A DNA stretch of 64,000 nt, from assembly GCA_002633005.1 (NCBI GenBank), contig NMRA01000827.1, positions 54,741 through 118,740 on the forward strand, in the 5' to 3' direction. The DNA comes from Phoronis australis. Lineage: Eukaryota; Animalia; Phoronida. Positions 5,130 to 64,000 of the stretch are shown here, piece by piece. The translations under genes and the position numbers were made by a program. Within the stretch, counting starts at the first letter, position 1. Each line of letters starts with the position of its first letter. Below the pieces are notes generated by a model. The model was not told where the DNA came from. It saw only the letters and a list, made by a program, of their open reading frames with translations, and ran no database searches.

Positions 5130-6394
5130 ACTAGAAAGATTATTGTCACGGCGTGACAATAACGGACTCTGCGCGTGCGCATTACTGGAATTATTATGTG
5201 AAGTTACTGACAACAACCCGTTCACCAATATGAAAAGGAATTCTTTAAAATTGTAGGAGAAATTACATGTTAATTTTTTGATGACCTTTCCACTAATTGA
5301 CCTCTTCCGGTGCATTTTGAACCCCGATGAGGGAGTAATTGTTAACTCGATTAAAAGTGTGGTTAATGCGTATAATCATAGATGTTTTACTTTAAGCACT
5401 TCAGAATACAAGATGAATGAAGTGGTCAAACTTTCAGAAAAAAATGCACCTAATGACCCCATGGGTGCACCAAATGAACTGAAAATTTAGAATTCAAACT
5501 CAATCGCACTTAGTAAACAGATAAGTAATTCTGAAGTCTCTAGCTCAAAATTTTAGTTTGCACTCAATGACCTTTGACCTATTTTTTCTGATTGGTTAGG
5601 CCTATTGCGAAGTAAAGTAGGGTTTTCACTTGGCATGTTGACTTACACCAGTGTGATGAAATTGAAAAGAATTCCTTGAAAAACGTAAGAGATATTTAAC
5701 ATTTTGAACGTTACATGACCTTTGCACTAATTGACCATATCCAGTACATTTTAAGCATCTTTAGGAGAATTATTGCAAAGCCCATGAAAAATGTGTTGAA
5801 CGCTAAGAATCACAGTTGTCTAACGGTTGACACATCAAAATACTTGCTGATTGAAAAGGTCAAATTTTCAGAAGAACAATGCACCTAATGACCCCATGTT
5901 TGCACTAAATGACCTGAAACTTTGGATTCCGATTTGATTTACCTGTGGCAACCAGACCTGTCAATTTGAAGTGTCTAGCTCAAAATTTTAGTTTGCACCT
6001 AATGACCTTTGACCTATTTCACCTGATTGGATAACCCGATTACTTAGAAAAGTGTTTTTTTAAATTGTCATGTGGACATATACCTGTGCACCGAATTTGA
6101 AAACGATAGTTTTAAAACTGAAGGAGGTGTAGCATTTTGAAAAATTATATGACTTTTGCACCAAACGACCTCTTCCGGTGCAATATGGAATATGATTATA
6201 TAACCAATCAAAATTTATATACTGTCAAAAGTCATATACTGAATTTAAAGACCGTACCTCCACCCAATTTGGAGTTATTACGCCTCAAAGTTGGTCGGAA
6301 GAAGAATAAGAATAAGAAAAATAAGAAGAATAAGAAGAAAATTGAAGAAAACCCAGGAACAACAGTACTCTGCGCTTACACGCGCAGAGTAATA
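5130..6394 (-). mobile_element. Helentron-associated non-autonomous element (HINE/DINE-1-like) inside the Kolobok inner copy
   Basis: Read on minus: 5' hairpin TACTCTGCGC..GCGCAGAGTA, a (TTCTTA)n microsatellite, and ~435 bp internal tandem core repeats (e.g. 5455 vs 5891). It ends with CGCAGAGT, the hairpin TTATTGTCACG..GTGACAATAA and ...CTAGTTT. Confidence 0.7.
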
Positions 6395-6849
6395 AAGATT
6401 ACCCTTACACCTGTTTGTGGGATGGAAATCGATCGAGTTGTTTCACAACAGTTTCTGTCAGCAAACACTAAATTAGCATGAGCTCACACGGCCTCGGTGT
6501 CCCGGTCGTCAATTAGTTTTATTGCACCTAAAGCCGGTAACGCAGTGATTTATTCATTGCTGGCTTCTCAAATCATTTGCCCTCACGAACACTCCAAAGG
6601 CATTACAAATTGCATCTAATGAGACACACTTTGTTTCAGTTTTATATAAGTTTTGGTTAGGGTGAGAATAATTCATTTTGAAACAGAACGCTCAGTAATA
6701 AACGCCAACTTGGTAACCCGCAATCCCGACTTAGGACGAGCTAGAGTTCATCAGTCCCGACTTTGCAGGTGGATCGTTAAGTTTTTCAGGCTATCAATTC
6801 GAACAGGAATACAGTGATGAAGAAATACTAGAGAGGAGCCGTGAACAAG

Positions 6850-7116
6850 CTAAGACAACGGAACGCATGAAGTTATTTGGCCGGTAAGCCGGCATTCGTC
6901 AGGCACTGTCGACATCTGCAGGCCACAGACACGGAGATGTTTCACTGCCTCATACATGTACTTGCTATTTACAGCATACATTTCATTCTTCACTACCATG
7001 AGCCACTTCCTAAGCATTTCGGACTCTCGAGGAAGTAAAAAAAAACGATATACCCACTTTCCTAGCAGCTGCTTAGTTCGGACAAGCGGGAACGATACAC
7101 CGCAACATAGCGGCAT
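6850..7116 (-). pseudogene. Degenerate THAP zinc-finger N-terminus of a Kolobok transposase
   Basis: MPLCC...FFLLPRE...LRKWL...LRVCG fits the THAP pattern (C..C, F-P, W, RVC-x-x-H). It starts ~165 bp inside the element end. Confidence 0.6.
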
Positions 7117-7902
7117 TCACTCTGCATATGAACCACTGACGTCGCTAGCGTCGTTTCTCACCTTCCTCACAGGTTAACGCGACACTTCTTGGCAATGTAA
7201 GGTCGACCGTATGCGAGGCGATGTGGATGTAGACCGATTAAGACGGCAAAAAAGACTAATTGAATCGGGTGGCATTCTCCTTTAAGGCCGTTATATTGCG
7301 GTGCGTGGTTCTCGCTTGTCCGAACTACGAAGCTGCGAAGAAAGCGGGTATATTGTTTTTTCGACTTCCTCGAGAGCCCGAAAGGCTTAGGAAGTAGCTC
7401 GAGGTAGTGAAGAATGAAAGGTACGCTGTTAATAGCGAGTATGAGGCCGTGAAACATCTGTGTCTGTGGCCGGCATTTCGTCGACAGTGATTTCTCTCCG
7501 GCTTACCAAAGAACTATCCATACGTTCCGTTGTCTGTGCATGTTCACGGCGCCTCTCTAGTATTTCTTGATCAATGTATTCCGGTTCGAACTGATAGCCT
7601 GTGAAACCTAACAATCTGACCCGTGAAGTATTTGTCGGATGAGCTCTTGACTAAGTCGGGCTTGGCGCCGGGCGAGTTGCCATGTATCTGCGTTCTGTTT
7701 CAAAATGAATTATTCTCATCCTAACCAATGCTTATATAAAACTGAATCTGCCTCATTAGATTCAGTTTGTAATCACTTTGCAGTATTCGTGAGTGCAAAT
7801 GTTGAGAAGCCCACTGCATGATAATTCAATGTTTGCTGGCAGAAAGCTGTTGTGAAACAGTTACTCGATTTTATATGCTATGGCCACATGATACGGGAAT
7901 CT

Positions 7903-8989
7903 TTATTACTCTGCACGTGTAAGCGCAGAGTACTGTTGTTCCTGGGTTTTCTTCAATTTTATTCTTATTCTTATTCTTATTCTTATTCTTCTTATTCTTC
8001 TTCTTATTCTTCTTCCGACCAACTTTGAGGCTTAATAACTCCGAATTGGGTGCAGGTACGGTCCTTAAATTCAGCATATGAAATTTGACAGTATATAAAT
8101 TTTGATTGGTTATATAATTATATTCCATATTGCACCGGAAGAGGTCGTTTGGTGCAAAGGTCATATAATTTTCAAAATGCTACTCCTCCTTCAGTTTTGA
8201 AGCTATCTTTTTTAAATTCGGTGCACAGGTATAAGTCAACATGACAATTTAAAAAATTACTTTTCTAAGTAATCGGGTCATCCAATCAGGTGAAATAGGT
8301 CAAAGGTCATTAGGTGCAAACTAAAATTTTGAGCTAGACACTTCAAATTCACAGTTCTGATTGGCACAGACAATTCAAATTGGAATCCAAAGTTTCAGGT
8401 CATTTAGTGCAAACATGGGGTCATAAGGTGCATTTTGCTTCTGAAAATTTGACCTTTTCATTCTCCAAGTACACTGATGTGTCAACCGTAAGACAACTGT
8501 GATTCTNNNNNNNNNNNNNNNNNNNNNNNNNNNNNNNNNNNNNNNNNNNAAAAAATAGGTCAAAGGTCATTGAGTGCAAAATTAAAATTTTGAGCTAGAG
8601 ACTTCAAAATTACATATCTGTTTAGTAAACGCGATTGAGTTTGAATTCTAAATTTTTGGGTCATTTGGTGCATCCATGGGGTCATTAGGTGCATTTTTCT
8701 TCTGAAACTTTGACCAATTAAGTCATGTTGTATTCTTAAGTGCTTAAAGCAAAACACCTGTGATTCTTAGCATTAACTATACTTTAAATTGGTTGTACAA
8801 TTATTCCCTCACTGGGGTTCATAATGCACCGGAAGAGGTCAGTTAGTGGAAAGGTCATCAAAACATTAACATGAAATTACTCCTACAATTTTAAAGAATT
8901 TCTTTTCATATTGGTAAACGGGGTTGCTGTCAGTAACTTCCCATAACAATTCCTTTAATACGCACGCCGTGACAATAATATTTCTAGTT
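7903..8989 (+). mobile_element. Second HINE copy inside the Kolobok outer copy
   Basis: Reverse-complement homologue of 5130-6394, starting TTATTACTCTGC and ending CTAGTTT. Contains N gap 8507-8549. Confidence 0.7.
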
Positions 8990-10500
8990 TAGAATTACAA
9001 ATACATTATTCAAATCATTGTTAATGTACAACCTCTGCCCTGACGGTCTGTGGAAGGGGAACCCGATTCGCGGCCCCGACAAGTAAGTGGATTTTCAGTT
9101 TCGTGGCTAATTCACGTAAATAATTACGTGCACATTATGTCTTTGGCTCACTATTATAGTCTTTTGGTGACTGGAGGTTTAGTTTCCAACTCAAGCTGGT
9201 TGTATTCATGCCAATCTCGGCGGGAACGACGGGCCAGCCTGATCTTGTTCGGAGCCACTGGCCAGGATAACGAGTAAGTCCGGCCGCGCCGGGCCTGATC
9301 GGGTTCCGAGCCACTGGCCGGGATAACAAGCGTTTAATGTGTTTAGAACTTAAAAAATCACAAGTCTAAGCAACACAGATCTAGTTTCTTCTGTCTGTAT
9401 TTCACGGAAGAATACTTCGAATTTATCACCGAACAGACCCCAAACTCCTGCTACGGACCTTGGTAAATTGGCATGCCAAACGTTGCAGGTTACGGTGTGT
9501 CCAAATACCAGTAAATCCGTAACAGAGAAAAAAAAACACGTTTTTATAAGAACTCGGTGAATTTTTAAGGGTTTTACATCGAAGCTTGGTGATTTATAAG
9601 CTGACACCAGTAACCCGTGTTGCGAACTGCTGAACAGACTGCGTGTGAAACCAATGACATCATTAGATAATTTCAACACCTCCGTCTGCCGTCAGGTGTC
9701 AGGTAACTTAACCGAACGTGCCGTTATCGAGTAGAAATACTCGATCTAAACTGATACAAAATAGGTTGTTTTTGGGTGGCATTCTCCTTTAAACCAAATT
9801 GACGCAATTTAGAAATTGTGTCAATCGAGGCCGGCGTTGGGCCTTTACAGCCTAGTGCACCACCTGGAAACCCCTGCTGATAAGTGTGGAGGACTCCGTA
9901 GTTGGAGTTCCTTGCGAACTTGGAGAGATCCGAACCACGAGGGTGAAACGCGAGTGTTTCACGAACAAGCTCGAGCTTTCACTGGCATGCAATAGGAAAA
10001 TGACTGCCATTGTACCTATTTGACGGCTAGCCTGGAACGTTGAAGTAAATTCACTGTTTCTGTTCTAAAAGACACAAATTCTCTGCCTAAAGTCTCTCGC
10101 TATTGGCAATTGTTACCGAATTTGCCCCTGGTCAGTGAGACAGATCCATGGGTTTACGTCAACATTTCCCGCCTTCTGTCTAACAACGAACTTTTGATTC
10201 CAAGCATTTACCGTTGTAAAACAGGCCTTAATTTCTTCCTTATGGGATTAGGCGTGCTTCCTGGGATTGGAAAGAACCGAAAGTTAGTTATTTCTTCAGA
10301 ATAGAGAACCTTGACCTACATTCTACAGTTGCTGATGCCACACGGATGGGCGCGCTCCTTAATTGCCACAGGTCATGAGAGTTCATGAACCAGGAAGCGT
10401 ATGTCCCTGAAGAGTGACGAATTTGTGTGCAAAAGAAATCTTTACATCCGACCGCGTTGAATCAACCTTTTATTTAAAAACGCCCATTGTAATGATAGCA

Positions 10501-10676
10501 TATAAATATAGATTATTACATGGCGAAGTCGTTATCCCCCGTTATCTAGAGCTCGAGTGGATTTTAGAGACTCATCGCCCGAGAGGCGTCAGCCCCGAGG
10601 GTGATAATTCTACAAAATCCACGAGGGCTCTAGATAAGGGGGATAACGACTGAGAACATGTAATAATCTATTTATA
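10501..10676. repeat. ~175 bp imperfect palindrome at the edge of a dispersed repeat
   Basis: Arms ATAGATTATTACATG..GTCGTTATCCCCC.TTATCTAGAGC..GTGGATTTT and AAAATCCACGAGGGCTCTAGATAAGGGGGATAACGAC..CATGTAATAATCTAT. Downstream 11010-11145 is the reverse complement of window 1-135. Confidence 0.8.
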
Positions 10677-12364
10677 CCACATACTGAGCGAGAAACATTA
10701 CAAGGAATCGATCTACCTTTCTCGACTCGCCTAGGTTTTGTAACTACTTTCTATGTCAGAGGTCCGGGGTCGGAGGTCGTGACCTTTTAAGAAAAGCCGA
10801 GCTATTTTTGTCAAATAATGCTTATACTCAAAACCAATTGAAAATTCAAACAAAATAGAAATAAAGTGAATCTATAAATTAAGGTTTAGCAACTAGTATA
10901 GCTTACTACACATTTTATCACGCTAAGCTTCGATGGGGAAAATATCGTCTGCTAAAGTAGGTTACCACTAGTAACTGACTATAATGCTCAAGTCAAAGGA
11001 TCCCGACGACACGATACCCGCATTCAAATTAGAGATCGGCGATTTACAAGTGAGAGAACAAAGAAAAAAATTTCACTGAATTAAAATATCGTTTTTATGG
11101 AAATTATGTGTCTTATTTTTCGTAGTGTATAAATGTCGATGCAATGCCCTTTGCTGAACATTCGTTTGTTGCGCGTGCTCATTTAAAGACGAAGGCAACC
11201 TTTTTTCACGTCGTTTTTAGCAAAAATAGGGTTCGTTGATTATCCCAGACATATTTTTCACTTATTTACAGCTTTTCGTAATTTAATTAATTACTCGTCG
11301 TCTACTCCGGAAGTGACGTTTTGGGAGGCAAGAATTTCGCGCCAATTTCTTTTCATACAGTCTGACTGAGAGAGCAGTCGAGTCAGTCATTGTTCTACCT
11401 CGGTTGTGATAAGTTCGCTGCGTTCTTCAATCAGGAAAAAGTGTCAATCAGGAAACACTGCAAGCGCCACAGACTCGAAGTCACGACCTGGCGGATACAG
11501 CGCGCGAACTTTACCATTACACCACCACGATTTAACTCACAATTTAACATTAAAAGACCTACTTGTTTATGGTCCACAGCGTTTGCCCGCGAAACCTTCT
11601 TTTTGTAATGCTTATTACATGTTTATATTTTGTTCAATCAGTTTTTAACAAATTTGTTGTATTTAAAATAGTCTTCAAGTACCCAAAAGACCAAATCCGT
11701 TTTTTGTGTTGGCAATAATGACGCGATTGCTTTGGAAATCGTCCTAAGTTAAGGTTTGACAAAGAGAGAATTATGAGTTTCTGCGTGATTCACTAAGGCT
11801 TCGTTTAAAAGTGACATCTTACCAGCAACTTCTGTTTTTTCGTCATCACTCAGATTCCATTTTCTTTAAAAAATGAAGTAATTTTCTTCATTGCACAGTG
11901 GAGCAGACGACGGAAACGAAGTCGTAGTGCCTATCGCCACTGCCGGTCGCCTGAGATAACGCGCGAGAGCCTATACTTAGCCATAGTTCCGTTACGATTG
12001 CGCAGTGTTCCGAATTTGACACTTGAAATTGGATCTGAGCCCCCTCCCCAAACACTAAAACTGCACACATTTAAATCTCGTTTCAGCCGTATAATTTTAA
12101 TTACCGGGATTAACTAATAAACTCAACATTTCCCTACGCTCTTGCTGTTTTATTTTTTGCGGCTGCCAAGGGGAGCGGGTGGGCCCCCTGCCCCCCCCTA
12201 AATCCGACTATGAAAATAAGCAAGCACGTTATGCGACAAACTGGTTCCCTGCGCTGCGTCCGGTCTCGGGAACAGCCTGCTTGGCCAGGCGGCAAAGTTC
12301 TGCTCTTGGCGATTTCGAATTGTCTGTTCTTTCCGAGCCCGGAAATGAATTTTATTCTTTGCAG

Positions 12365-45400: not shown

Positions 45401-46498
45401 GCTTTCATCCACCGCGTACAAAATGCCATTCACCGACGAAGACGCTGTGAGCCACAAAATGACATCGACAACTATCATGATGGAAGTTTTTAAAAGCTAA
45501 AAATGAAAAAAACTATATGAGTATCATGCTGGATTATGGTGAGACTGATATAAATGTCCTTGTAGACATGCCATTACCTCCATTATGCAAGCCTGTCAAC
45601 AAGAAAAAAGCGGGTAAGTTGAGATTCTCGAATATTTAAACGCCATTCACTAGAAATTAACTATTTTGACACATGGTCATCACGATAAACGCTTTATTTC
45701 GAAAATTATAAAACATAACTGCATGAAACTTCCAGGGCATATTTATTTCGATTTATGCTGACTGATGAAGGTAAAATATCTGTACTGTAACTTCAGTGAA
45801 TTACCTTTCGCCACGGATTAGTGACAAGTTTTTGATAATTTTGTTCTCGAAATTACTAGTTAAAGTTCACACTTTTTTCTTCAGTGTGTTTTGGTTTTCT
45901 TAGCTTAACCACGTTAGAAGTGATGTGAAGAAACTGTATAGTTTAACTTTCATACTTACTGCAATCACATACTTTGGTAGAACATTAAAAGACCTTGATA
46001 CATGTACAGTATATTGCGTAAAATTGGGTTTGGCGGCCATTTTGAAAACTAATTTATATATCATTCACATGAACCAGATTATTTTTTTTCATATTTAATA
46101 TGTACTGAATTGTCATTTAGAAACGTAATCAAACTGATATCTTTGTTTTAAAACCATTTGTTTATTTTCTTGGAAAATAAGCCACTAATCCTTGTAGGTT
46201 ACTTAAGAGAAAAAAACACTTGTTTCCTTGTTGTTGTGTGTGATATGGTGAAGCAGTGCGATGTATGACAGCAGGTTAAAAGTACAGACATGACAAAACA
46301 GAGATCTCTTTCGGCTTTAACTTTACACCTGTGTTAATGTCGCACGTTTCGCGTCAGTTTTTAATCTCGAAATAAGGCGTGGCATAACTCATTTTTTTCG
46401 GCAGAGAGTCACCTATGTTGCCGCTGCCCAGTTGTACCTTTCAATTTTGCATGTTTGAGCAAACGGGGAGATTTACAAAGAGCACTCCGGCTTATGTC

Positions 46499-46836
46499 TA
46501 CTATATTGTATATACAGTTCGTAGTAGTCTACATGTTATTGCACGCCAAAACATTAACCTACGTTGACTATATTGTATTTACAGTTCGTAGTAGTCTACA
46601 TGTTATTGCACGCCAAAACATCAACCTACGTTGACTATATTGTATATACAGTTCCTAGTAGTCTACATGTTATTGCACGCCAAATCATTAACCTACGTTG
46701 ACTATATTGTATATACAGTTCGTAGTAGTCTACATGTTATTGCACGCCAAAACATTAACCTACGTTGACTATATTGTATATACAGTTCGTAGTAGTCTAC
46801 ATGTTATTGCACACCAAAACATTAACCTACATTGAC
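46499..46836. repeat. 67-bp minisatellite, ~5 copies
   Basis: Unit ACTATATTGTATATACAGTTCGTAGTAGTCTACATGTTATTGCACGCCAAAACATTAACCTACGTTG. Confidence 0.95.
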
Positions 46837-47794
46837 AACATCTGCATCTGTCGCAAAGGTAAACATAGTCACCAAACAATGCACAGATTCAAATGTATTG
46901 ATGTTCCGTCCGTATCATTTAGAAACAGTTAGCAACCCCTGAAATTTTAACAATAGTTGTCACCAGGCAAGTTCATTGACACATGTGCGATTGACCGCGA
47001 GTGCACCGAGAGCAGCGCCATCGTTTGACCATGGAAAGTCGTAGCATAATCTTCGTCTTCAGCGGTCAGTATGAGGTCGGATTTCGGGCTTCTTTAAATC
47101 AAAGATTCTAGATGCCTAAGAGAAATCAGACGCACCGTTTCTAATACACAACCAATTAACCCTTTCACTGCATCACCCCGGCCAACCCGCGATCGATAAC
47201 GACCGGAAGGCGATCGGAACGAAATTTGGCGCGAGAAGCGAAGCCAGAAAATGTAAATAAACTTGATGAATTTTTGGTTGTTTTGAGCTTCAATACGAAA
47301 ACAGAGACATGAGTTCAAGGCGTAACACATTGAGGAAGGACAGGTAGAAGTTTAGGCTTGTGTCTCGTCCAAATATTGGAGAAAAGTTACGTTAACCGAT
47401 GCATCGCTTGAGCCGAAGGTGATTTGTATGTCATTTTTGCAGATTTTGGTTATTTTTAGTTATATATCAATATATTAATCATCAAGTTATGAAGAATTGA
47501 CGAATGAAAATGTAACCCAACGCTTGTTTTCCGTAGCATTGTCAGGATCTCTGATTTATGAACCTTTTTCTGTTACTAAGAAGCGATCGAGAACGCAATG
47601 AAAGCGATCGGGAACGCACATTTGAGTTCGCTAAAGCGATCGGGAACGCATTGCGATGTGTTGAACATTAGTGAACTTTTCAGCAATAAAGAGTTTTAAA
47701 AGTTACAAAACAAGTGTGGTTCAATGAATTAATGATATTTTGCATCATTACTGTGTTACTTTCGTGTCAAAAACTAAATTTCATAGCATAGCAT

Positions 47795-48081
47795 CCCATA
47801 CCAAAAAGGCCTCCTGCAAACACTTGCAGCAAGCTTGCCGCAAAAGTTTCTGCAAACCAGCCACAAACACATGGAATGATCTGTTGTAAGTTTCCTGCAA
47901 CCCAGCCGCAAATATTGCAGCAAGCTTGCTGCATGTTTCCCACTAGCATGCAGCAAACTTTCACCATGCAAATGAAGTTTGCAGCAAGCCCTCAGCAAAC
48001 ATCTCCATGTCCTTATTTGTAACAGTTCCTGCACGGCAGCTACACACATTGCTGCAAGCTTGCTGCAAACATCTTCATGGG
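47795..48081. mobile_element. TGCA(G)CAAG-rich non-autonomous element with CCCAT...ATGGG ends, in transposase intron 1
   Basis: Many TTGCAGCAAGCTTGC-type subterminal repeats and short inverted ends. No clear TSD. Confidence 0.5.
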
Positions 48082-49566
48082 GTTATGGATATTTTCACAA
48101 ATGATGTTATTTTTATTTCAGGAAACAATTTCATTGTTATTATTGCCCGGCAAGCTTCATCGACCATGAAAAAAATCATTGCCCACGCTGTGGCGGTGCA
48201 CCCTTCCAGGGTTTTAAAGTACAGGCGTCTCCTTTTAGATGTAACTACTGGGAAAATGGGACTCCAAACTAAGACGCACCCAGGAGTTATTCCAGGAGAC
48301 GTATCAGCTGGGGGAAAACAAATTGTTGCGGCTGATGAAAGTGAGTGTCGAATATTTTTACAAAACTGCGACAACAAAAGAAAAAACCGAACACGCCAGT
48401 GAAGTCAAGCAATGATAGTGAGTTTGCCAAAGAAAATCTGAAAATAGATGAGACTCCCAGTAATGAAGAATTAGAGTTTGACAAGTTGTGCTTCTTGCTT
48501 CCCCAAGTCATAGAGACAATGAAAGAAAATGGTCTCGTGGAATCTTACGTGAAACTGAATGAACTTCTTGCCTCAGGTAGACTGCCTTTGAACAACATAT
48601 GTTTCCTACTATTCCTGGATATAGTTGAGTGGTTTTCGGTGGAAAACACTTCCAAAATGCGTTACCAAAACCCACAAACTCTTCGGTTCTGGGAAATTGG
48701 CTACCAGCTATTTCATGGAAAGTTCATCAGATTTATGTCTGGACAACGAAACACAGGTCAGATTTTAGACCAGTCAACAGCAAGGGGAGAGTATACATGT
48801 AGCCCAGGTGAATCCAAAGTGAACTTTGCAGTGCCATCTCTGACTACATTACAACATAACCTTTCTAAAAGGAGTCCGTTTTTTCCAGGAATAAACAGGC
48901 AGACAATTGAAAATATAGCCCACACTTATGAAAGCTCTCCTGCAATTTTAGCTGTGGATGGAAAAAAATATTGACCTGTGGGGTTTTGAACCAAATTCAA
49001 CTTTTCAGGAAAGACTGAACCAAGTTGAACGAGAAGTAGAATTCGTGAATGAGCTAACAAAAGAAACGGATTTACTAATGACCTATAGTGTTCAGACCAT
49101 TAGTGCAATACCCTCAACGTCACGTGAAAAAATTCATTCCGGACTCGTTGAATTGGTTAAGTTCATAGGATATCGTAATAAAACAATGAGAGACACTGAA
49201 CAGACGCTAATCCGCTCTGACAAAACGCAGTGAAATTCGTGCCCACCTAAAAGAAGGTCTTCAGCTGTCAGACAAGATCACAAAATTGGGAATTGACCTA
49301 AATGGGAAATCAAACCTTTATTTCGAGAAGTTAGTTAAGCTTGCAGAACAACAGAACTTTTATTCACTGAACCCGAACTTCAATAAGTCAACTGATCCAC
49401 GTTACATGCAACAAAGAACTCCGGAGTGGTTTTCTTTGCGCAGGGAAGCGAAAGTTACTGGAAGTACAGCCAATTGTGCACTCGGCTTAGAGACCTTAAA
49501 AAGACAAAAAGAACATTTTCATCAAGTAATTCACGGCATAGAAAAACCTGGTCACAGTGCACTTAA

Positions 49567-52500
49567 GTATCAGTCCACGGATCCACCGACCACAGTACAG
49601 CCAACAAGCGGCAAGGTGGGGGGTCAACCATTCAGATCCATGATTAGTCTGATCAATCACATTAGGGATAAGAGAAAATGGGTGAAGTATGACACCACAA
49701 AGTTTGGTGGTTTAGGAGATAGAAGGGAAGTGTTCTGGGGTGCAAAATGAAGCAATTTCTTGGTGTGGAATGAGTCATTTTTGACCAAATTTTCTACTCC
49801 AGTTTCTGCTTCAAACAGAATCGTTTCTGAACAATTTTGATATCACATAATAGGTTCATGACCAATGTCAGTAAAAACGGCACCGAAACTGCAATATCGG
49901 TTACCATGGTAACACTGGAACTGTTTCCGTGGAGGTACGACGTTTCCGTCTTGTGAAAAACCAGCAGTAAGCTGTACCCTTATAGCGAAGCTGCCCCCAC
50001 AAGAAAACTAAAAATAATAACATGGACATGTAGAAGACTCCATGCCCTTGAAATTAATACAATAAAAACTTTGTCAGCCCTTCATGCAGGCTTGGTAATA
50101 GGTGTCTGAATTTCACTATTTTCAGACCGCGTATGTGTATTTGTCATGTTAAACCAGTCACTAGTTGTGAGCCGTTTCTACGCATTAATATGCCGTGGTA
50201 TAATACAACAATTAAAACAATTGGTTTGCTTAAATGTTTTTAATTAATTTTAAGGACACTAGCATTTCCCAATAAAATATGAAATTATACTAAATTTGTT
50301 CATCCAATTCGTCTGAATACCAAACTAAATTTTACAATGCGTTAGTTGAATGATGGCTGACCTAAAGTTCGGGTTTGCGAATTTATCTATTTATCTGGCA
50401 CTGCCAGTCGCATCAAATGTGGTATTTCTACAAATTGCGGAGGGAAACAACTTTGGAAACTCTAGGGAAATGCACAAGGTATAGAGCGAGACATTTAGCA
50501 CCTTATAACAGTACGTGGAGCTGATGTGGAGGTGGAACGTGTCCTCCTGAGTAGTCTGTCTCAGTGTCTGCCTCGGGGGCACTATGTGAAGCAGGAGCTA
50601 CATAATCTACCGTATTAGGTTCACTTGCCCGAATCATCGTTACAACACTCGAGATATATTGGCGTCGCCAAAGACACTTAGAACATCCACTGCACACTAG
50701 AGGAAAAATCTGATACAGGTCTGAAAACTGACCAAAGACGTTAAGCCAAGGTTTAACGTCCTGCTTCGTGTGAGCTCAGGTAGGAATCACTAAACTCCAG
50801 GGTCAGAACCTGAGGAATATTTTTAGAAACACGTCATTCATGCAAAAATACTTTTATTGACACACCGTGATTGCTTATAACTTGGGCCTTATTGCTTAAT
50901 CATATCTTATTCAAATGTGTTGATGTTTATGCAACTACATGTATACATTGGCACAGAAAATAGGTACAGTCATCATAACTTTTCATAACAACCACCAAAT
51001 GTGTAACATGACTTCTTCCCATGAACTACTTTTAGAGACTAGGGAGTATGTTTTTGTCTACCAATGATTTTCTGCGATTATGAAGTTAATTAAACATGCT
51101 AAAGCTGTCAGAAATATTGGTGCCTTCACTTTAGCTTGGTATTCATATTTTGTGAGCTGAAATGGCCACATTAAATTTAATATGTTTAATTTTTCATTAA
51201 TACAATTTTAGGAATCAGGGTATAGAAAAGTTCACAACCAGCAAGAAGGTACCCTTCTGGACAACTAAGTGAGGGGGCTAGAGAGAGGCCGAAAAGTCTA
51301 CTACCAGAAGATATGTCAAAGAGAATTTTTAGCTTGAGGAACGAGTTGGGGAAAAAGTATTTGCCAAAGATTACTGGCTTATACCACAACAGGTCCAAAG
51401 TAATTTGTTGAGATAGGCCACTTTCAGCAAATGTGGGGAAACTGGGACAGACGAAGTGGTGTATGCATAGAAAGAGGCAATCTGCGATTGTCAAGGATGT
51501 AGCAAGATTGTAAAAATTCAAAGGGAGGAAACAGTACAGTGGCTGGACCTGTAAATACTATGGCTGATCTGCTAAATCCAGTGGGGGTATTAATGTATCA
51601 GCACAGCTGTGTAGGGAAGTAGGCTTGTGTGTTGTCGCAAGCTTTGTTTGCACCAGAACTGCTTGTGTGAACAGTACAAATCTAAAATTTACCTAGTCTA
51701 AGACTGAATTTTTGTCCAGGCACGGATTATGATCCTGCGCCACATGGTAATGGTACATTGTTCACTTTGTTTAGCCGCTGGATTTTTTGGTCTGACAGGA
51801 TTTCTCAGTGTCGCCATCACATTTAGATCATTTCTGACCACTGTACTATTCTTTTTCCTTGAAGATGCGTAATTGATCTGAATTTATGTTTCCGCATTTT
51901 ATTTACCATTATAGATTTTTGTTTGTAAATGGGTATATATTACTGAAATTTGAGACCCTGTCGCAGTTAGGCTGGTTTTGTTAACTTATCTTTCTGCCTG
52001 AGTTGGTAAACCCATATTCTGTCCAGGAGGTAATAAGTTTTGATTTAGACCATTTACCTCTTTAAACTTTGCTCAGTTTGTTCCTTATCCAGATGGGAAG
52101 TGATTTCTGGAATTGTAGCGAATTGACAGTTTGCTATTCCTTAAGACCATTCTGTGTGTATAAAATCACACACTATTATTCTGGTCTCTAGCAATTGCAT
52201 ATTGCCAGATCTTTCAAAGTTCTGAAATTGCTCAAAAGTGACCTGGAAGTAATACCTATTTTGTGATGGTAAAATATCTAAATCAAAAGTTGTTTTATAT
52301 GAGTTTAGGCGAGTTTATGTCCACTTCAAATGATTTTTTGTTGCAGTACTGAAAAATATTGGCACATTAGCTATGGTGGTTCCTAGTTTTTTTGGCGAAT
52401 TGACCATTTTATGGTTCCCGTGGGTAATTTTGTTACTGGTCTAGTATGTATGTACAACTGTAATCGTAGGGCAATTGTAATGCAAACCATGTTGCAANAC

Positions 52501-55500
52501 CTTATAAGAGTACGTGGAGCTGATGTGGAGGTGGAACGTGTCCTCCTGAGTAGTCTGTCTCAGTGTCTGCCTCGAGGCACTGTGCAGTAGGAGCTACATA
52601 ATCTACCGTATTAGTTTTGCCCGAATCATCGTTACAACACTCGAGATATGTTGGCGTCGCCAAAGACACTTAGAACATCCACTGCACACCTGATAGAGGT
52701 CTGAAAAATTACCAAAGACGTTTAAAGTCAAGGTTCAACGTCCTGCTTCGTGTGAGCTCAGGTAGGAATCACTAAACTCAGGGGGTCTGACCCTGAGGAA
52801 TATTTTTAGAAGCCCGTCATTCATGCAAAAATACTTGTATTGACACACCATGATTGCTTATAACTTGGGCCTTATTGCTTAATCATATCTTATCCAAATG
52901 TGTTGATGTTTATGCAACTACATGTATACATTGGCATAGAAAATAAGGTTGTCATCATAACGTTTCATAAGAACCACCAAATGTGTAACATGACTTCTGC
53001 GGTACTTGATGAAAATCTCTGATCCCTCATACAAAACAGATGGTTACATTTTCTGCGATTATGAAGTTAATAAAACATGCTAAAGCTGTCAGAAATATTG
53101 GTGCCTTCACTTTAGCTTAATTGGTATTCATATTTTGTGAGCCGAAATGGCCACATTAAATTTAATCTGTTTAATTTTTCATTAATACAATTTTAGGAAT
53201 CAGGAAAGGCTTATGCTGAAGAAGTGGCTTCTGCTGAAGTTGGAGACTTGCCGATTATTAGTAAAGGTTGGGTATAGAAAAGTTCACAACCAGCAAGAAG
53301 GTACCCTTCTGGACAACTAAGTGAGGGGGCTAGAGAGAGGCCGAGAAGTCTACTACCAGAAGATATGTCAAAGAGAATGTGTAGCTTGAGGAACGAGTTG
53401 GGGAAAAAGTATTTGCCAAAGATTACTGGCTTATACCACAACAGGTCCAAAGTAATTTGTTGAGGGAGGAAACAGTACAGTGGCTGGACCTGTAAATACT
53501 ATGGCTGATCTGCTAAATCCAGTGGGGGCATTAATGTATCAGCACAGCTGTGTAGGGAAGTCGCAAGCTTTGTTTGCACCAGAACTGATTGTGTGAACAG
53601 CACAAATCTAAAATTTACCTAGTCTAAGACTGAATTTTTGTCCAGGCACGGATTATGATCCTGCGCCACATGGTAATGGTACATTGTTCATTTTTTTTAG
53701 CCGCTGGATTTTTTGGTCTGACAGGATTTCTCAGTGTCGCCATCACATTTAGATGATTTCTGACCACTGTACTATTCTTTTTCCTTGAAGATGCGTAATT
53801 GATCTGAATTTATGTTTCCGCATTTTATTTATCATTATAGATTTTTGTTTGTAAATGGGTATATATTACTGAAATTTGAGATCCTGTTGCAGTTAGGCTG
53901 GTTTTGTTAACTTATCTTTCTGCCTGGGTTGGTAAACCCATATTCTGTCCAGGAGGTAATAAGTTTTAATTTAGACCATTTACCTCTATAAACTTTGATC
54001 AGTTTGTTCCTTATCCAGATGGGAAGTGATTTCTGGAATTGTAGCGAATTGACAGTTTGCTATTCTTTGAGACCATGCTGTGTGTATAAAATCGCACACT
54101 ATTAGACTGGTCTCTAGCAATTGCATATTGCCAGATCTTTCAATGTTCTGAAATTACTCAAAAGTGACCTGGAAGTAATACCTATTTCGTGATGGTAAAA
54201 TATCTAAATCAAAAGTTGTTTAATGTGAGTTTAGGCGAGTTTATGTCCACTTCAAATGATTTTTTGTTGCAGTACTGAAAAATATTGGCACATTAGTTAT
54301 GGTGGCTCCTAGTTTTTTTGGCGAATTGACCATTTTATGGTTCCCATGGGTAATTTTGTTACTGGTCTAGTATGTATGTACAACTGTAATCGTAGGGCAA
54401 TTGTAATGCAAACCATGTTGCAAAAGTATGTTTTCATGACCATTTCATTGTAAAATGCTGCCTAATTGGAACCGACAAGCCAATTTTTCATTTTGTGGTG
54501 GTTAGTTTTGATAAGAACATTGATGTGGTAAATACAGCTACCTCAAGTTTATGAAGAAGAGATTTCCAGTGTTGTCAGCGATATTGCGAAGAAATCACTT
54601 TTTCGCAATGAGACTGCATCACCTTAAATGTAATTCCCTGACTTTATGGGCTTTGTGTGGTTGACTCTGTCCTGTAGCAATTAGAGTGTTGTAAAGATCT
54701 AGAAGGCATTTTTTTATTAGAGTCATAACATTTGCACTCTGGACTGTACAGTTATCTTTGCATTGCATTACGAAAACATTTTGTAGTACACAAGTCTCTG
54801 GTTGGTATTTTATATTTTTTTCACGAGGAATATTTTCAACTTAGATGAGTTTTCTGTGAGGTAGGCAATTTTCAAATAAGATAATGAATAAAATTGTCAA
54901 ACATTGTTTTATTTTTTAGATATGTCATCTTCCAATAAGTGATTACTTTTAAAAAACCTGTGCAGAATTTGATTTTTACTCTTCATTTGAAGGAGAATAA
55001 ATCCATAAACCTGCATTGTCTAGAAATTTTACTCAAACTACATAATACAGGGTTGGGGACTGGAATCTTAATACAACAGAGTCTGAACCCGTACCATGAG
55101 CAATACAACACAACACACGGATATAAAAATTTGGTGTTTAGGTTCCACGGAAAGGATTCGTGCGCGCGGTAATAGTTACTAAGGTGCGTGGTCATTGTTT
55201 GTGAATACTTTGGGATTCCTCTTCTGTGGTCATCCACGGGAAACCTGGTCGCATAGAGAACAATAGATTAGCATCTTCATTGTTTCCGTTGTTATAATAA
55301 AGATATAATGACGAGCACTTATCGGCAACGGTCTGATGTACGCAAGGTTCTATATCCATGCAACCTGTGTTGTTACATCCAACAATGACACAACGAAGGA
55401 AAACAATGANTTTAGAAAAACGCAATATTTTGAGGAAATATTTTACCGCTGTTTATAGATCCCATAGGACTACCTATGTGCCAAATTTGGTGAAAATCGG

Positions 55501-55544
55501 CTGACCCCCACCTTGCCGCTCATGGCTGGTGCTCTCGTGGACTA
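49567..55544. mobile_element. ~6 kb nested TIR element (Academ-like termini), decayed
   Basis: Left end AGTCCACG..CAGCCA..AGCGGCAAGGTGGGGGTCA; right end TGACCCCCACCTTGCCGCT..TGGCTG..CGTGGACTA. Flanked by GCACTTAA on both sides. Removing it restores the host reading frame. Confidence 0.8.
50501..54423. repeat. ~2 kb tandem duplication (50501-52497 and 52500-54423)
   Basis: Both units start CCTTATAA.AGTACGTGGAGCTGATG and end TGCAAACCATGTTGCAA. A single n sits at the junction (52498). The units have reciprocal indels. Confidence 0.92.
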
Positions 55545-58500
55545 GCACTTAACACTCAGAGAATGCTTTATGGAACTGAACACGAACTGGATGCAGTCGC
55601 AACAATGACATCTAAAGTGTTGCCGTTTCTGTTTCCAGAACTGAGCTATTACGAAGAAGGATGCCAAACAATACCTCACGGCGACAATGCAGCATTCATG
55701 GTAGTGAGTTCGCATGGCAGTCTCTGGACAAATGATAATGCAGAACCAATAATGATGTATGAAAACAAGTGCAAACCACCCCAGTCCTATAATCCTAACG
55801 CATACTACAAGATTCCTAAATATTACGCTGTACAGTTACTCTCTGAGATGTTTGCTTATAGATGTGACAAATTACTCTTTACGTGCTGGTCAGAGACGTC
55901 CCCTACTGCTTCCATGGTTAATTTCGACCATCATCTATGGGGAATGTGCTGGGAGGAAATGACAGAAGTGTATGGCAGTCCAAATCCAAAGCTACCTACC
56001 AAGTTCAGACCTAGTCGAAAGTTCATCCAAGAACAAATCGCTGCATTTATGGAGAATAATATCCACTTTCTCGCTGAGTTTATGTCGTGTGTTGCTGTGA
56101 GATCACCATCGTCAGACGTCCAAAGTGATGACGTTTATATATCGCCACAGAGTTCAAATGACGCCAAGCCAATTTCTACAGCTAAAGACTTACAGAACTG
56201 CCTTGTGTCGACGAAAAACTGGATTAATCGGGCTTATCAGTTGTCTAGGACAACTGCATCCGAGATTCTGGTCTACATGGTGAACAATTTAGACCGGACT
56301 TACCATGCCGAAATAAATGTTGCTCATCCTATAGCGTATGCAATGAAGGGAACAAGTATGAATAATGTCACCTTTAGAAGTATGATGAATCACGTTATCT
56401 CTGAATGTGAAGCAAGGGGTCTAAACGTGCTGGCCACGTCTAGTGATGGACAATGGCATAAGTACGGAGTTCGCGGTGATGACAACGAACCATTGACTGT
56501 CTTGCAATTACAGAAAGATCACTGGTCAAGTGTGATGTCACAAGATAAGAAGACGATTTTGTCCCAAATAAAATCTAAAGCAAGTGTAAAGAGTTTTCCT
56601 GAAGATGTCCAAAAAAGAGTACAATGTCAATGGTTCCGTGACTGTCTGGCATAAGACAGATTCACCGATGACCGGGTATCTAAACACAGAGCACTCAAAA
56701 TCCCAGAGAAATGCAATCATTGATGCTACTTGCCAGAACAGATATGATGGAACTGAATCTCAGCTGTTATCTGTAAAAGAAACATGTCTCGCACTCCTTG
56801 AGGATTAACACTTTGAAAACACCTCTCTCGAAACTCTAAATGCTGTTGAAAATATAATTGAAAGCTCAGTAACAAATAACGTGCAGAATTCGCATGAGTT
56901 CCTTGGACAGGACTATTTTGTCGAACCATGGTTGTTCCAAGAAGAACCGATTGCTACACAAAGTTTTGGCGTAACATCTGACGTGCTCTCTGGGGCTTTT
57001 GAGGCCATGTACAGTAATGGCCATGACGACTTCTATGTGCAAACTGTGATCGATATGAGTGTTGATAAAATACCTTTAAGAAGAGATGGTGACCATATGG
57101 AATTGGGCGAAGAAAATCTCAACTACGCAGTATATGCCAATGATGACAACACATGTGTGGACACAGAACATGTACTTCAAAGTAAGGAGAATGGAAATGC
57201 GGAGTTGTTAGTTTCTGAGAATCGTTACACTGTGGACACTGCAACGTCTGAATCCATGCTGAATGCTTTAAAAGCAAATGAAATGGCTGAAAACTATCAT
57301 AAATGGTCACAAAAACTGTTGAAGACTTCAAAAGACTTTTTGCATGTAAGACCACTTGCAATAAGGCACTCCACAAGTGAACTCCAAATGTGTCTACAAG
57401 TGTTACGTGTGCAGCACGGTGTTTGTTTTGACATTAAACCTTAAAGAAGGAGCTAGTTCAGTTGTTCATGTCTACATTGAACTTTGGGGTAAATCCCCCT
57501 ATAGGAAGTATCATCAGCGCAATCCAAGTGTTTGCTCACTTAGAAAAATGTGTTGTTCTGTTTTAGAACGTGCATCAAAACAAGAGCTTGCTAAGATTCT
57601 CGCTAGCAGAAGACACATGTCATAAAGCTTTACAACAGTGGATTGAATCTGGACCATTGTACCACACTTCGTGTTTTCTTGATAGTGAAAATAGTATGAA
57701 GAATTGGTTTTCTCGTCCAAATACTGACCAATACGGCAAGAACAGGTTCCACTTCACCGACGCCTATCACATTTTGACTTGTATTAGGACAAAACTCTGT
57801 ACTACTGGAATTGCTGGTTTAAAGCGAAAAGCATGGGAAGATGTTGCTCTATCTCGCAAAACCCATCTCAATATTGCTGCGATTGAGGATTGCATTGACA
57901 AGCAAGATGTAGCTTTAGCAAGACGTGTATTTTCCAGGGATGTTCAAGAAAATATGCTTGACGAATATGTCGAGAAAGAATTTTGTGAGTTAATTCGAAA
58001 CTGGTTTGATGCCGAGGACGAGCCTGCCATACCTGCTGCTGAAAGATGCATCCGAAGGCTTCGACTTACAAAATGGCTTTTAGAAGAATTTGCAGTGAAC
58101 ACATTTCCGCCACAAACCCGATATATCAGAGGCATACCGATACAGACTTTCGAGGCATTGTTGGTGCACTTGGAAAGGAAAATGCAAATTTTCCCTTTCT
58201 GCAGAAATCAAACATATAAGGTTCGTGCAATAGGTTCTCAGCAGGTGGAAAACTTCTTTTCAACATTCCGAGATATGAACTCCACTGGACAAGGGAGACC
58301 AAAACCAGACTCCATTCCTCAAATGATGACAGCAGTTGCAGATTTAGACTACTGCAGAATTGACCCAAGCAGGTAAGCATGATTTAGAATCAAGCTTTTT
58401 TCCTACACATGATTAACTGTAAATTACGTGGACATATCAACTCTCATGTTTGATATTTTACAAAAGTGTTATTTTTTCAGTTAAAATTTTGAAGATGTGG

Positions 58501-60205
58501 CAACAAAACGCTCCGTGAATAAAAAATGAAAAAAATGTTTCACATACCTATCCTCTGAGCTGTGACAGGAAAAAAGTTTTGAGGGCGATGTAAGTGTAAA
58601 TTTATTTTCACACAAGGGCTCGTATGTATAATCAAAATAGTTAGGAACTAGTTGAACTGTAAGAAATTATATTAATTTAACACTTAGCTTGTCAGGTTTT
58701 GTAAGAGGTGCCACTAAGAATTTGAATTGTTTCAAATGTATTCACATTTACATGTTTAATCTTCTATAAAACCCCCTACTTGGTTTCAGATCATTCTATA
58801 TGTCAACCCCACGAGCCGGAGTGTATCCAATGAGACAGTTTGAGTCCGATGAAACCCAAGAATGTTTTCACGGCCAAACGCAAGACATTCATTCTGCATT
58901 AGTTTTTAGTCTGATAACTCCGAGGTTAGTGTTATGTGATACACGTTAACTGTAATTGTTTTCTTATATACATTACTTTTTTCTGTAGTCAACTTTCTCT
59001 TTTTTCGTCTTCATCTATTCGTTATCATGTCGCGTATTAGTGCTGATAAAGTCACGTAAAGCACCATTGTTTTAAAAAATATTCAAATCGTGGCATTTTC
59101 AAATAAGCAAGGTCTTCATGAGCGCCGGGTCAAAAATACCCTTCAATAAATAAACGTCCAAGCGCTTGTGCGTCGTATTACGGTATTTCCACTACTTTGA
59201 AAACAACGGGCAAGTGTAATGCAGCTTACAGGCTAGCGTCGAAAGCTTAAAAGGAGGATTGATTACTCATTAAATTTTGAGACGTCATAAGGTCGCAACC
59301 CTTTCATTCTCTTCAGTAGACGACGATACAAAATTCAAGATTCCTTTTTCCAGGGACCATTACTTTGATTCAGTGCAAAGAGATCGGAAGAAGCATCTTC
59401 GGAAAGGAGGGAAAGTGTCGTTGCCAAGCGAGTCCGCCCATGGTGAGAAAGGAGTGCGACAACACCATTCGCGAGATGACTCGAAGATACCTGCTCATAA
59501 ACGACTCGGATTTCAAAATTTGTCAGAAGTTGTGTAGCCAAAAGTATTGTGGTGATAAAAGTGGTGGGATTTTGTTTAATGGTTTACTAATAACATCCAT
59601 ACAGAGTTGAACAAGACTGACTTGCTACATCCTTGTGGCTTGTATGTGTTTGTGTTCTTGGACCCGAGTTCACTGTGCTATTTCAGTTCATGGGACATTG
59701 AAAAAGAGTGAGAGGAGTTGTAATACACATACTATATTGTGATTTTCTCAAAACGTGACAATGTTGTCTTTAAGTCATTTCAAGACACACTATAGTAACT
59801 ACACTGGAAATCAACAATATGAAAGCAAATTCCGTAATAATAGTAATTGTTTAGTCACACATCATCTCAAAATAGGTCATAAAAATATATAAAATATAGC
59901 TCTGGGTAGTCAACATTACAAAGGCATTGAACATTCCCCACGAGGTATTTTTGGAATGCATTGCACTTATTATAGACACTTATTTTATCTATCTTAAACA
60001 GAACCAGTGCATTTTTGTAGTGTTTAGGTATATTCAAATGACCGTACTAAGTGCCATTGGCCATTGTTATTACCATAAGATTTTAAAAAGAAAATAACAC
60101 AAATGTAGAAACTTTAGAAAAAGGTTCAAAATATCACATCTGGCAACTGCCAACCATAAACTCTTTTAATCAGAATAAAAACTTAAGCAAATTTCACTAC
60201 TGGAC

Positions 60206-60715
60206 TTAACGAAGCTTCTGTTTTTTGTGCCTACAGAGGGAGGCATAATGCTTGTACGATTTGCCGCATTCACAACAGAAAGCAGTGACCTCATGTTGTG
60301 ACGCGATGTGTCGCTTTTAGGCTCACTTTCTCTGTGAAACATTGGTTGCAGGCATGACACTGAATTGTCTTGTCTCCTGAGCACAGTGCTTCATGTTGTG
60401 ACTTTTTATACCTATTGAAAAACTTCTTGCCACATGAAACACGTGGAAATGCTTTGTAGTTTGCGTGCTGGCTCATGTGATCTTGAAACTTTGTTTGTCT
60501 CACGAACACTTTCCCACAGTCCGTCACTGGGCAGGTGAACGTCTTGGTTGCAGTCCTGTCACAATACTTTGTTGCCATGTGGTCAAGCAGTGTTGATTTT
60601 TTACTAAACGAAGCTCCACAAGTCACACATTGTCCTTTGTCACAAGCACTAGTTCTCCTTTTTGAAGGTGTAGACGTTAAGAAGCGAAAAGACTCATCTT
60701 GTGGCAGAAGTTCAA
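60206..60715 (-). pseudogene. Multi-C2H2 zinc-finger protein exon inside the transposon, with one frameshift
   Basis: Acceptor TTTTTTAG at 60716. Fingers CVTC..F..L..H, CPVTDC.K.F..F..H...H, (R)VSC.K.F...H...C and CHAC..F..L. After a frameshift: RHIASQH and CCECGKSY..L.RH, then a stop. Confidence 0.8.
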
Positions 60716-61748
60716 CTAAAAAATATCAAAAGCATTTCAGTTATACTTGTTAGGTTAAATCTCACAAAAATCAAGAAAAACAGTGAAGTATAATAAACAA
60801 TCAACCCACCCGGCGCCTATTTCAGGGTACGTATTAAATGTAAAACTGACATAACACCGTAACTTGAACGAGTATTCAGGCCAATGCATAGAAAAAGAAT
60901 GTGCGTTCACGATCGCTTTTTTTGCGTTCACGATCGCCATATGAAAGTAAGGATTTCGTTCTCGATCGCCGTCTCACCCAAGGACAAGATTGTATTGGTA
61001 AATATCTCGAATTGTTTCACAAAACATAACTTCGAAAGGTGTCACCTGGGGCAATGAAGCTCTAAACGTCACACTTCTTTACTTTAGAACTCTGGAACTG
61101 CTAATAACAGGTAAAACTTGTCGACTTAACGACGCGCAAGGCATTTTATCGGAAGGCATTACTGCTGGGCCGTTTATTTGATGAAATAAGCAAAAGCCAG
61201 GCATCATTTCAGATTGGCAACAAAGGTTAAGCTCTGACGCTTTTCTCTGTGTCGCATTCGTGCCAAAGTAGCCACTATTTAAGAAGAAAATGACACTAAG
61301 ACTCACCGGGTACATCATCGTCGTCTGCCATTTTTGCGGCAAAGTGTCGTTCTCGATCGCTTTCCGGTCGTTCCCGATCGCGGGTTGGCCGGGGTGTGCA
61401 TGCATGAGTTCATATTGGAATGGTGTTGCAAATGCACCGGGTAATACGGTCTGTTTGCGCCTTTACTTGACGCTTCGTTTCAATATAACAACATTGCCCC
61501 AAAAACAACTCTGCCAGTCGATCATGAATTTGTCAAATTAGAACACCCGGAACACTATCTGACGACTTGACAGTTAATTGATATCGAGCATTTATTGGTC
61601 GATACGTAATGCGTAAAATTGGGACAAGTAATCCCAGCTTTAGTTATCCTTCATTGTGTTCAACTAGCGGAATGTCCGGTCAGACTTTGCTGCTTGTTTT
61701 CCCTTGGTTCAATAAGGAATGGCGAGGCGTTGCGTTTGTAGTGGTTGT

Positions 61749-63037: not shown

Positions 63038-63450
63038 CACTCCCTTACAAAAATGAACTTAAGTTTTTCGCTGAAAACTTAAGTTTTTCAGCACAATGTT
63101 AAGTTTTTCAGAAAACTTAAGTTTTTTCAGGTGTAAAACTTAAGTTTTCACAAATAAACTTAAGTTTCATGTAATAACTTAAGTTTTCATGAAAACTTAA
63201 GTTTTTTGAACTAACAAAACTTAAGTTTTTCTGATAACTTAAGTTTATCACAAAACTTAAGTTTTTGTAGTTTTAAAAACTTAAGTTTTCCTGAATTATT
63301 AAGTTTTTCGAAAACTTTAGTTTTTCCAATTATAGAAACTTAAGTTTTCCTGACTTCTTAAGTTTTTCAGAAAACTGGATTTTTTCATGTTTGGAAAACT
63401 TGAATTTTCTAAAAACTCTAAGGTTTCTATGTGATGAAATTTACGTTTTC
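63038..63450. repeat. Array of palindromic AAAACTTAAGTTTT motifs, probably the end of a CACTA-like non-autonomous element
   Basis: More than a dozen copies of AACTTAAGTTTT, decaying rightwards, preceded by CACTCCCTTACAAAAA. Confidence 0.7.
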
Positions 63451-64000
63451 TAGTTTTTAAAATTTGAATATAGTGAGATATTTTTTAATTTTTGGTTCAA
63501 AAATTTTCCCATTATTTTCCAACAAAAAATAATTATTTGCTCATGCAAAACCCATCGTCTCATAAAAATGTTGCCCGAATGTTTCCTTAACATTTATATA
63601 GATACAAACCATAAAAGGACGAAAGTTTAACCAGTACTGATTTAGTGCAATTACGTAATCATTATCGCACGTGAATTTAAATGTAGACGAACATCCGGTG
63701 ACCAACAGCAGTAAGAATGTATCCAATGTTAATCCCCTGAGATACTGACCTGGTCAGTACAATCTAATCAATAGAACTCATGTAATTCTTAAAAAAACGT
63801 AGTTATTGTGCAAGTTTCCTTTGTGTTGAGTTGTATTCGTAAGGCAGTTTCCACCGGAAGTCAACAGTTTGAATTTTATAACGACAGTCAACTTCGAAGA
63901 AAAAGTCGTGTGTTGGCTAGCCCGCGACAATGAAGTTTATATTACTACGAGCTGAGCCAGCAAGAAGACATTTCACAAGTTTTGGAAGTCAGGTTAGTGC

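Follow-up and report, generated by a model that had tools for sequence, protein, structure and literature searches.

The closest described counterparts of the element considered here are the transposons of the P superfamily (Drosophila P transposase, PDB 6p5a and 6pe2; THAP9), whose transposase runs from a helix-turn-helix (HTH) region through a split RNase H fold with an insertion domain, and has DDE catalytic residues with a C/DxxH motif between the second aspartate (D2) and the glutamate; P elements also carry terminal inverted repeats (TIRs) and internal repeated sites, and a GTP cofactor and 17-nt staggered cleavage are further marks of the superfamily. In the excerpts of PMC7776569 (PMC sources are cited from excerpts throughout), the first aspartate (D1) of P is D230 and D2 is D303, a spacing of 73 residues, the cut ends bear 17-nt 3′ extensions, target site duplications (TSDs) are 8 bp, and donor breaks are repaired by homologous recombination or non-homologous end joining. 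The subject of the present report is a 64,000-nt stretch of the Phoronis australis genome (contig NMRA01000827.1, hereafter the window), positions 47174–61396 of which are a dead, decayed copy of a 14.2-kb DNA transposon. Its P-like transposase gene includes a nuclease domain of the YqaJ/lambda-exonuclease type (PF09588).

Nucleases of this kind have been described beside other transposases. KolobokE, also a C/DxxH-group DNA transposon, encodes a lambda-exonuclease-like PD-(D/E)xK nuclease downstream of its transposase domain, and has a TTAA TSD and RR..YY termini (PMC9587614). ISL2EU, likewise eukaryotic, carries YqaJ on a separate open reading frame (ORF) beside a PHIS-type transposase, with an AT target and GG termini, and the role of the extra ORF is there stated to be unknown (PMC4482050). 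In bacterial Tn7, a PD-(D/E)xK-type endonuclease, TnsA, is paired with the DDE transposase TnsB as a separate or end-fused protein (PMC13598128). Transib and RAG1 are characterised by CAC termini, a 5-bp TSD, and a CACAATG heptamer with a nonamer (PMC1131882), and the lambda-type enzymes themselves bind double-stranded DNA ends, digest the 5′ strand and leave 3′ overhangs (PMC3424549).

With regard to P, the family represented in the window has the same predicted fold, the DDE residues with C/DxxH, the TIRs and the internal repeated sites in common. It differs in having ~465 extra residues (a helical stalk plus the YqaJ nuclease) between D1 and D2, which lie 494–587 aa apart in the 32 relatives scored, and in a further insert before DxxH; structural identity is 14%. 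The N-terminus is C2H2-like instead of THAP, a zinc-finger gene is added, and the flanking repeat at the window copy (one insertion) is 5 bp instead of 8. Having neither THAP nor an 8-bp TSD, the window copy falls outside the P superfamily as defined, although its family is predicted to work like P. Identity with KolobokE is ruled out by this 5-bp repeat, the CAC termini and the position of the nuclease inside the RNase H core, and identity with ISL2EU by the one-chain YqaJ, the CAC termini and the 5-bp repeat. The CAC termini and 5-bp repeat are, again from one insertion, those of Transib; here the terminus reads CACCCCG, and the absent heptamer together with a weaker fold match rules out Transib itself. 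Compared with lambda exonuclease and LHK-Exo, the domain has the same fold (Z 15–16) and all aligned motifs, but lies inside a eukaryotic transposase rather than being a free phage enzyme, and compared with TnsA it is an exonuclease-type domain within the catalytic fold.

Domain order in the transposase family

From the window alone, a sequence-only reading had placed a YqaJ domain between D1 and D2 of the transposase, and relatives of the gene bear this out. A set gathered with the C-terminal core alone (57579–58373) as query comprised 552 clusters (50% identity) at E-values up to 0.001, and domain order was counted in the best 150 of these, to which the counts over 32 relatives refer throughout. 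They include 83 C-terminal fragments, 25 sequences reading YqaJ–D2–C-terminus, nine reading D2–C-terminus and one YqaJ–C-terminus, whilst the remaining 32 extend to D1. All 32 read D1–YqaJ–D2–DxxH–E, and in each a single polypeptide, not separate proteins, carries both YqaJ and the DDE core. Amongst the best 150 there was no relative with D1 and D2 that lacked the insert, and no insert-free sister group was found there or in other homologue listings. That a lambda-exonuclease-type domain sits between D1 and D2 of a single transposase chain, with both catalytic sets conserved, can hence be held with near certainty.

A separate search amongst longer proteins, using the window frame 55563–56651, gave 1,006 candidates, 20 of which are relatives (15 with precomputed YqaJ; longest 1,706 aa). 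Intact relatives occur in molluscs, an annelid and amphioxus (named hosts being Dreissena, Mercenaria, Pinctada, Mytilus, Littorina, Batillaria, Owenia and Branchiostoma) as single proteins of 1,200–1,700 aa, and the database labels seen for them are hypothetical, uncharacterized or 'YqaJ viral recombinase domain-containing' only. An alignment scan reduced 253 pattern matches to ten loci (L001–L010), ~30% identical, and two metagenome loci, L002 and L003, hold all motifs in uninterrupted genomic frames of 1,362 and 1,532 codons. The ESM Atlas contained one cluster of 58 members, 64% with YqaJ; single-protein scans of metagenome and viral contigs returned no relative. With 552 clusters matching its C-terminus the family is large, and its interest lies in the intact relatives, the window copy being dead.

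Both active sites are conserved in intact homologues, with D2, DxxH and the glutamate present in 31/32 and the exonuclease D..ExK in 27/32. Across 65 long sequences D2 is found in 64, DxxH in 63 (two lack the region) and the glutamate in 61 (four lack the region), and D1 in all 42 that reach it. For these 42, the exonuclease residues are W in 41, R in 39, the S of VTGS in 37, E in 36, S in 39, D in 40, E in 40, K in 39 and Q in 37. The nuclease motifs align one by one with LHK-Exo, and the PD-(D/E)xK residues and YqaJ family motifs are present in relatives, whilst SPDG has decayed to SSHG in the window copy. Five relatives (P0065, P0098, P0105, P0117 and P0135) retain the DDE residues, DxxH and the full insert length and have lost the exonuclease catalytic residues; the first four form one clade of the transposase tree (support 90). 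A Pfam scan for YqaJ succeeded for 11/13 homologues above cut-off, yet for 0/7 window ORFs, where only a sub-threshold TNP-like_RNaseH_N match (E 0.0032) was returned. Trees of the nuclease and the DDE core from 39 sequences are correlated (Spearman 0.62; 0/200 permutations as high), which fits, without proving, long co-inheritance of the two. Homologues confirm the second long insert as well: between D2 and DxxH it measures 168–562 aa in those with both motifs. At the N-terminus, incomplete in many relatives, a C2H2-like finger was seen in 11/42 and a THAP pattern in 0/42, and Pfam scans gave no THAP match.

Structure prediction places a P transposase fold around a lambda-exonuclease domain. 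An AlphaFold2 model of P0014 residues 61–1253, built from 24 sequences (predicted local distance difference test, pLDDT, 77.8; predicted template modelling score 0.65), gave five Foldseek matches at E-values up to 0.001, two to P transposase and three to lambda-type exonucleases. By VIA-align, the model matches P with Z 27.9 (root-mean-square deviation, rmsd, 3.2; 348 residues aligned; model 6–1187, chain 142–565) and lambda exonuclease 3sm4 with Z 16.0 (rmsd 2.9; 185 aligned; model 281–486), the next-best transposase folds being RAG1 (Z 10.9) and HzTransib (Z 9.7). Because the P alignment spans model residues 6–1187 and the exonuclease alignment 281–486, the P fold of the model brackets the nuclease. 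The insert replaces P residues ~231–241, which we interpret as the loop joining strand 1 to strand 2; in the model the nuclease is reached through three long helices, with a single helix leading back, and a weak helical-bundle match (126–574) suggests that these stalk helices pack together. The predicted order is thus HTH, strand 1 with D1, helical stalk with nuclease, remaining strands with D2, linker, DxxH, insertion domain and glutamate. TnsA is not among the 50 structural matches listed, which does not in itself exclude it, and P transposase was missed by sequence-profile searches of the PDB, one of which recovered exonucleases only. The second insert is partly of low confidence (pLDDT under 50 at model 713–806). 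It ends in a conserved helical subdomain (~57150–57600; model 813–950) with fold matches of Z ≤3.5, the sequence of which recalls a SAP-type DNA-binding motif.

The assignment of DGKK as the first catalytic strand was addressed by folding the post-insert part of L002 alone (pLDDT 86.0). This half aligns to P only from residue 241/242, past D230 (Z 20.8 vs 6.8; rmsd 3.7; 291 aligned), to mouse RAG1 from ~606–609, and to Hermes from 185–186 in most rows; D600 and D180, the first catalytic aspartates of RAG1 and Hermes, both precede the aligned starts. As the post-insert half aligns past the first aspartate, the D1 strand lies before the insert. The DGKK aspartate is invariant (42/42) and falls on a predicted strand (model 96–105), the other invariant acidic column being in a predicted loop.

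Candidate roles of the nuclease

The best overall explanation, to which we assign an even chance, is a P-like transposase whose built-in exonuclease would resect the donor ends, as the sequence-only reading had proposed, the element then being restored by repair. By analogy with P, the DDE core would excise and integrate the element in much the same way, with a 5-bp stagger. The tethered nuclease might then load on the 5′ ends of the flanking host DNA and digest 5′ to 3′, leaving 3′ overhangs at the donor, which would make gap repair by homology more likely than end joining. With the sister chromatid as template the element would be restored, such that cut-and-paste movement could yield a net gain of copies. 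Resection of the donor, in preference to the transposon ends, is itself put forward tentatively, at a little short of an even chance. Donor flanks are favoured because P cuts both strands without a helper, because some relatives have kept DDE and lost the nuclease, and because one and the same nuclease family was taken up by ISL2EU and by KolobokE although their ends are different, a pattern that would indicate a general benefit, for instance directing donor repair towards homologous recombination. An accessory rather than essential role is likewise favoured, since 5/32 relatives lost exonuclease residues and kept DDE, and nucleases of this family are found in unrelated superfamilies too.

It is highly improbable that the arrangement is an artefact, either because gene prediction fused two genes or nested elements or because DGKK is not D1. 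In favour of this are the fragmented window copy, which fails the Pfam YqaJ scan, the conservation to at least 80% of four acidic columns (two of them invariant) before the insert, and the placement of D1 by strand rather than by residue-level superposition on D230; the uninterrupted frames of L002 and L003, a conspecific contig spanning D1 to D2, and the post-insert half lacking the D230 strand nevertheless lead to rejection of a gene-prediction artefact. Unlikely, but deserving more weight, is a nuclease that makes or trims the 5′ cut on the non-transferred strand of the transposon, producing a P-like long 3′ extension, and which, as a counterpart of TnsA, would be needed for excision. The 17-nt extensions of P, for which the excerpts of PMC7776569 state cleavage order and mechanism to be unknown, would suit this, as would the role of TnsA, a restriction-endonuclease-like partner, in making the Tn7 5′ cut (PMC13598128); the insert is, moreover, in 32/32 relatives, with catalytic columns about as conserved as the DDE ones. 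P transposase, however, works without such a domain, 5/32 relatives lost its catalytic residues and kept DDE, and the best fold matches are end-loading exonucleases. Somewhat less probable still is a domain that degrades excision by-products, trims integration gaps, or mainly clamps ends without catalysis. Retention of insert, stalk and length in the nuclease-dead clade P0065/P0098/P0105/P0117 speaks for this, whilst against it catalytic and end-binding motifs are kept in 27/32 relatives although the nuclease domains average 32% identity.

Several observations weigh against a P-like transposase with a built-in, donor-resecting exonuclease. The lambda exonuclease ring is a trimer, and digestion by the enzyme is processive. 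The enzyme is described as a toroid (PDB title 1avq), whereas the nuclease here is tethered to a transposase and may be unable to form such a ring. Relatives with a dead nuclease could themselves be defunct or domesticated elements, and so do not prove the nuclease dispensable. The 32 scored relatives were themselves among the 42 family members from which the domain profiles were built, and only 15/36 splits (FastTree) or 11/36 (IQ-TREE) are common to both domain trees, with one and four supported conflicts, respectively. Finally, the 5-bp flanking repeat is known from one insertion only.

With regard to novelty, a full-text literature search found no published description of YqaJ inside a transposase core, though a Repbase label for the family is possible, and excerpts of PMC5718144, PMC10045372 and PMC4455052 make no mention of such a design. 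The family is possibly of superfamily rank. A fuller proposal is more doubtful: a superfamily-level lineage, sister to P, with Transib-like ends (CAC, 5-bp TSD), a C2H2 partner, and a two-nuclease transposase that would excise and then resect the donor break, steering the host to copy the element back. Lambda-type nucleases occur in several lineages of eukaryotic transposons; here the nuclease is in the same chain as the transposase, such that a point mutant in an intact homologue could separate the job of the nuclease from transposition. Two questions become testable in this way: do cut-and-paste elements gain copies by actively biasing donor repair, and by what means do P-like enzymes cut the second strand? 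The family also shows that an RNase H core can accommodate 465 residues inserted between the first and second catalytic residues, a position that might serve for engineered fusions.

The decayed copy in the window

Motifs from VDGKK to SDGQW, as listed in the sequence-only reading, are all present at their given positions (Table 1), with YGTEHE to SDGQW in one ORF (55494–56654). The series is in order, but is not a continuous frame: it occupies four frames, with two frameshifts from D1 to YqaJ, and YqaJ is split by a nested element. VDGKK closes an ORF at 48968, and QQRTPEWF to VTGS (49409–49465) lies in a third frame. The pieces are nonetheless one gene, because four intact homologues as queries give collinear tblastn matches across 48130–59522, and in the DNA contigs of 4/4 public runs, drawn from two samples, 49558 is followed directly by 55545, which gives an empty site for the nested element. 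At the 3′ end, relative P0006 matches 59352–59522 by tblastn (E 3.7e-9). The nested element is absent from a 3,517-nt conspecific contig that covers 48082–57103 and exceeds the window by 106 letters from 48968 to 49219. At 48968 the window has lost 31–32 letters; other copies carry 31 there, which code for the conserved stretch that follows DGKK. Frame-offset arithmetic, rather than contig translation, indicates that with the 106 letters restored and the nested element removed, D1, YqaJ and D2 share a frame. RNA reads from two runs (18–19% sampled) cover the 5′ part of the gene in both directions at mean depths of 0–8 each, which is no proof of mRNA.

Table 1. Features of the decayed element, in window coordinates
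Feature	Position	Strand	Remarks
Flanking direct repeat TGCAT, left copy	47169..47173		probable TSD; among lengths 2–10 only 5 matches
Left TIR, 43 bp, 5′-CACCCCGG...	47174..47216	+	93% complementary to right TIR
Subterminal 13-mers GCGATCGNGAACG, three left	47583..47648	+	fourth inside TIR at 47189
Zinc-finger-like N-terminal region, frameshifted	48130..48400	+	tblastn; C2H2-like in homologues, not THAP
HTH-like helical region and RNase H strand 1 with D1	48345..48968	+	VDGKK 48954–48968; D codon 48957–48959
Nuclease-bearing helical stalk, frameshifted	48967..49408	+	~74 letters missing near 49183–49219
YqaJ/lambda-exonuclease domain, N-terminal part	49409..49562	+	motif match; QQRTPEWF 49409, VTGS 49454
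Nested ~6-kb high-copy TIR element, 5,986 bp, unclassified	49563..55552		TTAA site; 8 letters GCACTTAA fit either side
YqaJ domain, C-terminal part	55553..55995	+	end approximate; YGTEHE 55569, SSHG 55707–55718, ENKC 55761, YYAVQ..EM from 55821
Return helix and RNase H strands with D2	56180..56456	+	start approximate; EILVYMV 56262, PIAYAMKG 56328, SDGQW 56442; D codon 56445–56447
Second insert: variable acidic linker and helical subdomain	56457..57758	+	several stops, frameshifts
DxxH, helical insertion domain aligned to that of P, catalytic E	57759..58372	+	DAYH 57759, SQQVE 58236; E codon 58248–58250
C-terminal exons, probable	58790–58924 and ~59350–59534	+	putative splice sites
Second gene: decayed tandem C2H2 zinc-finger array	60209..60725	-	zf-C2H2 E 1e-11; convergent with transposase
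Subterminal 13-mers, three right	60904..60969	-	two more at 61348 and 61369
Right TIR, ...CCGGGGTG	61354..61396	-	inverted partner of left TIR
Flanking direct repeat TGCAT, right copy	61397..61401		pairs with left copy

Both ends of the element begin with CAC, the termini reading CACCCCGGCC, and the inverted pair starts CACCCCGG at either end. Contigs lose their match exactly before 47174 (22 and 19 of them in two DNA runs) and the flanks agree at 0.38 only, thus 47174 is a terminus and the family has many insertion sites. Summed contig depth in run X2, 42 on the flank against roughly 740–1,200 on the transposase gene, points to a multi-copy family, although it cannot be read as a copy number. 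Contig depth at 47174–48145 and 60828–61396 exceeds that of the gene several-fold, and divergence sets in after 47216 in many contigs, which suggests non-autonomous derivatives. The 13-mer has nine matches in the window, all inward-facing and within ~500 bp of the element ends (chance mean 0.08), and is likely a transposase-binding site. The product of the zinc-finger gene could bind these subterminal repeats or regulate the element. L004, a 29%-identical relative, has seven C2H2 fingers at the same position and orientation (8203–8892, minus strand), and the other related loci, which are shorter, have none on that strand.

No element-scale TIR pair was found in L001–L010. The GCGATCG motif of the window is likewise in none of the related loci, its sole match being L009, where a stand-alone YqaJ ORF (9941–10744) is found; the contig, 33 kb long, is densely packed with unrelated ORFs, has no match to a transposase and is possibly a large DNA virus.

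The nested element contains an internal duplication of ~2 kb (50500–52497 and 52499–54423), and decayed THAP-like motifs can be discerned by eye on its minus strand near 55130–55400. Pfam assigned no useful family to nine of its short frames. It is Kolobok-like, but its GT..AC termini misfit RR..YY, and a reading with an 8-bp repeat is a further possibility. Elsewhere in the window are a 67-bp tandem array (46426–46908), an AT-rich palindromic array with the unit AAAACTTAAGTTTT (63054–63465), and a foldback-like long inverted repeat at 4164–9792, whose arms (4164–7117 and 7116–9792) are ~81–88% identical and contain internal repeats.

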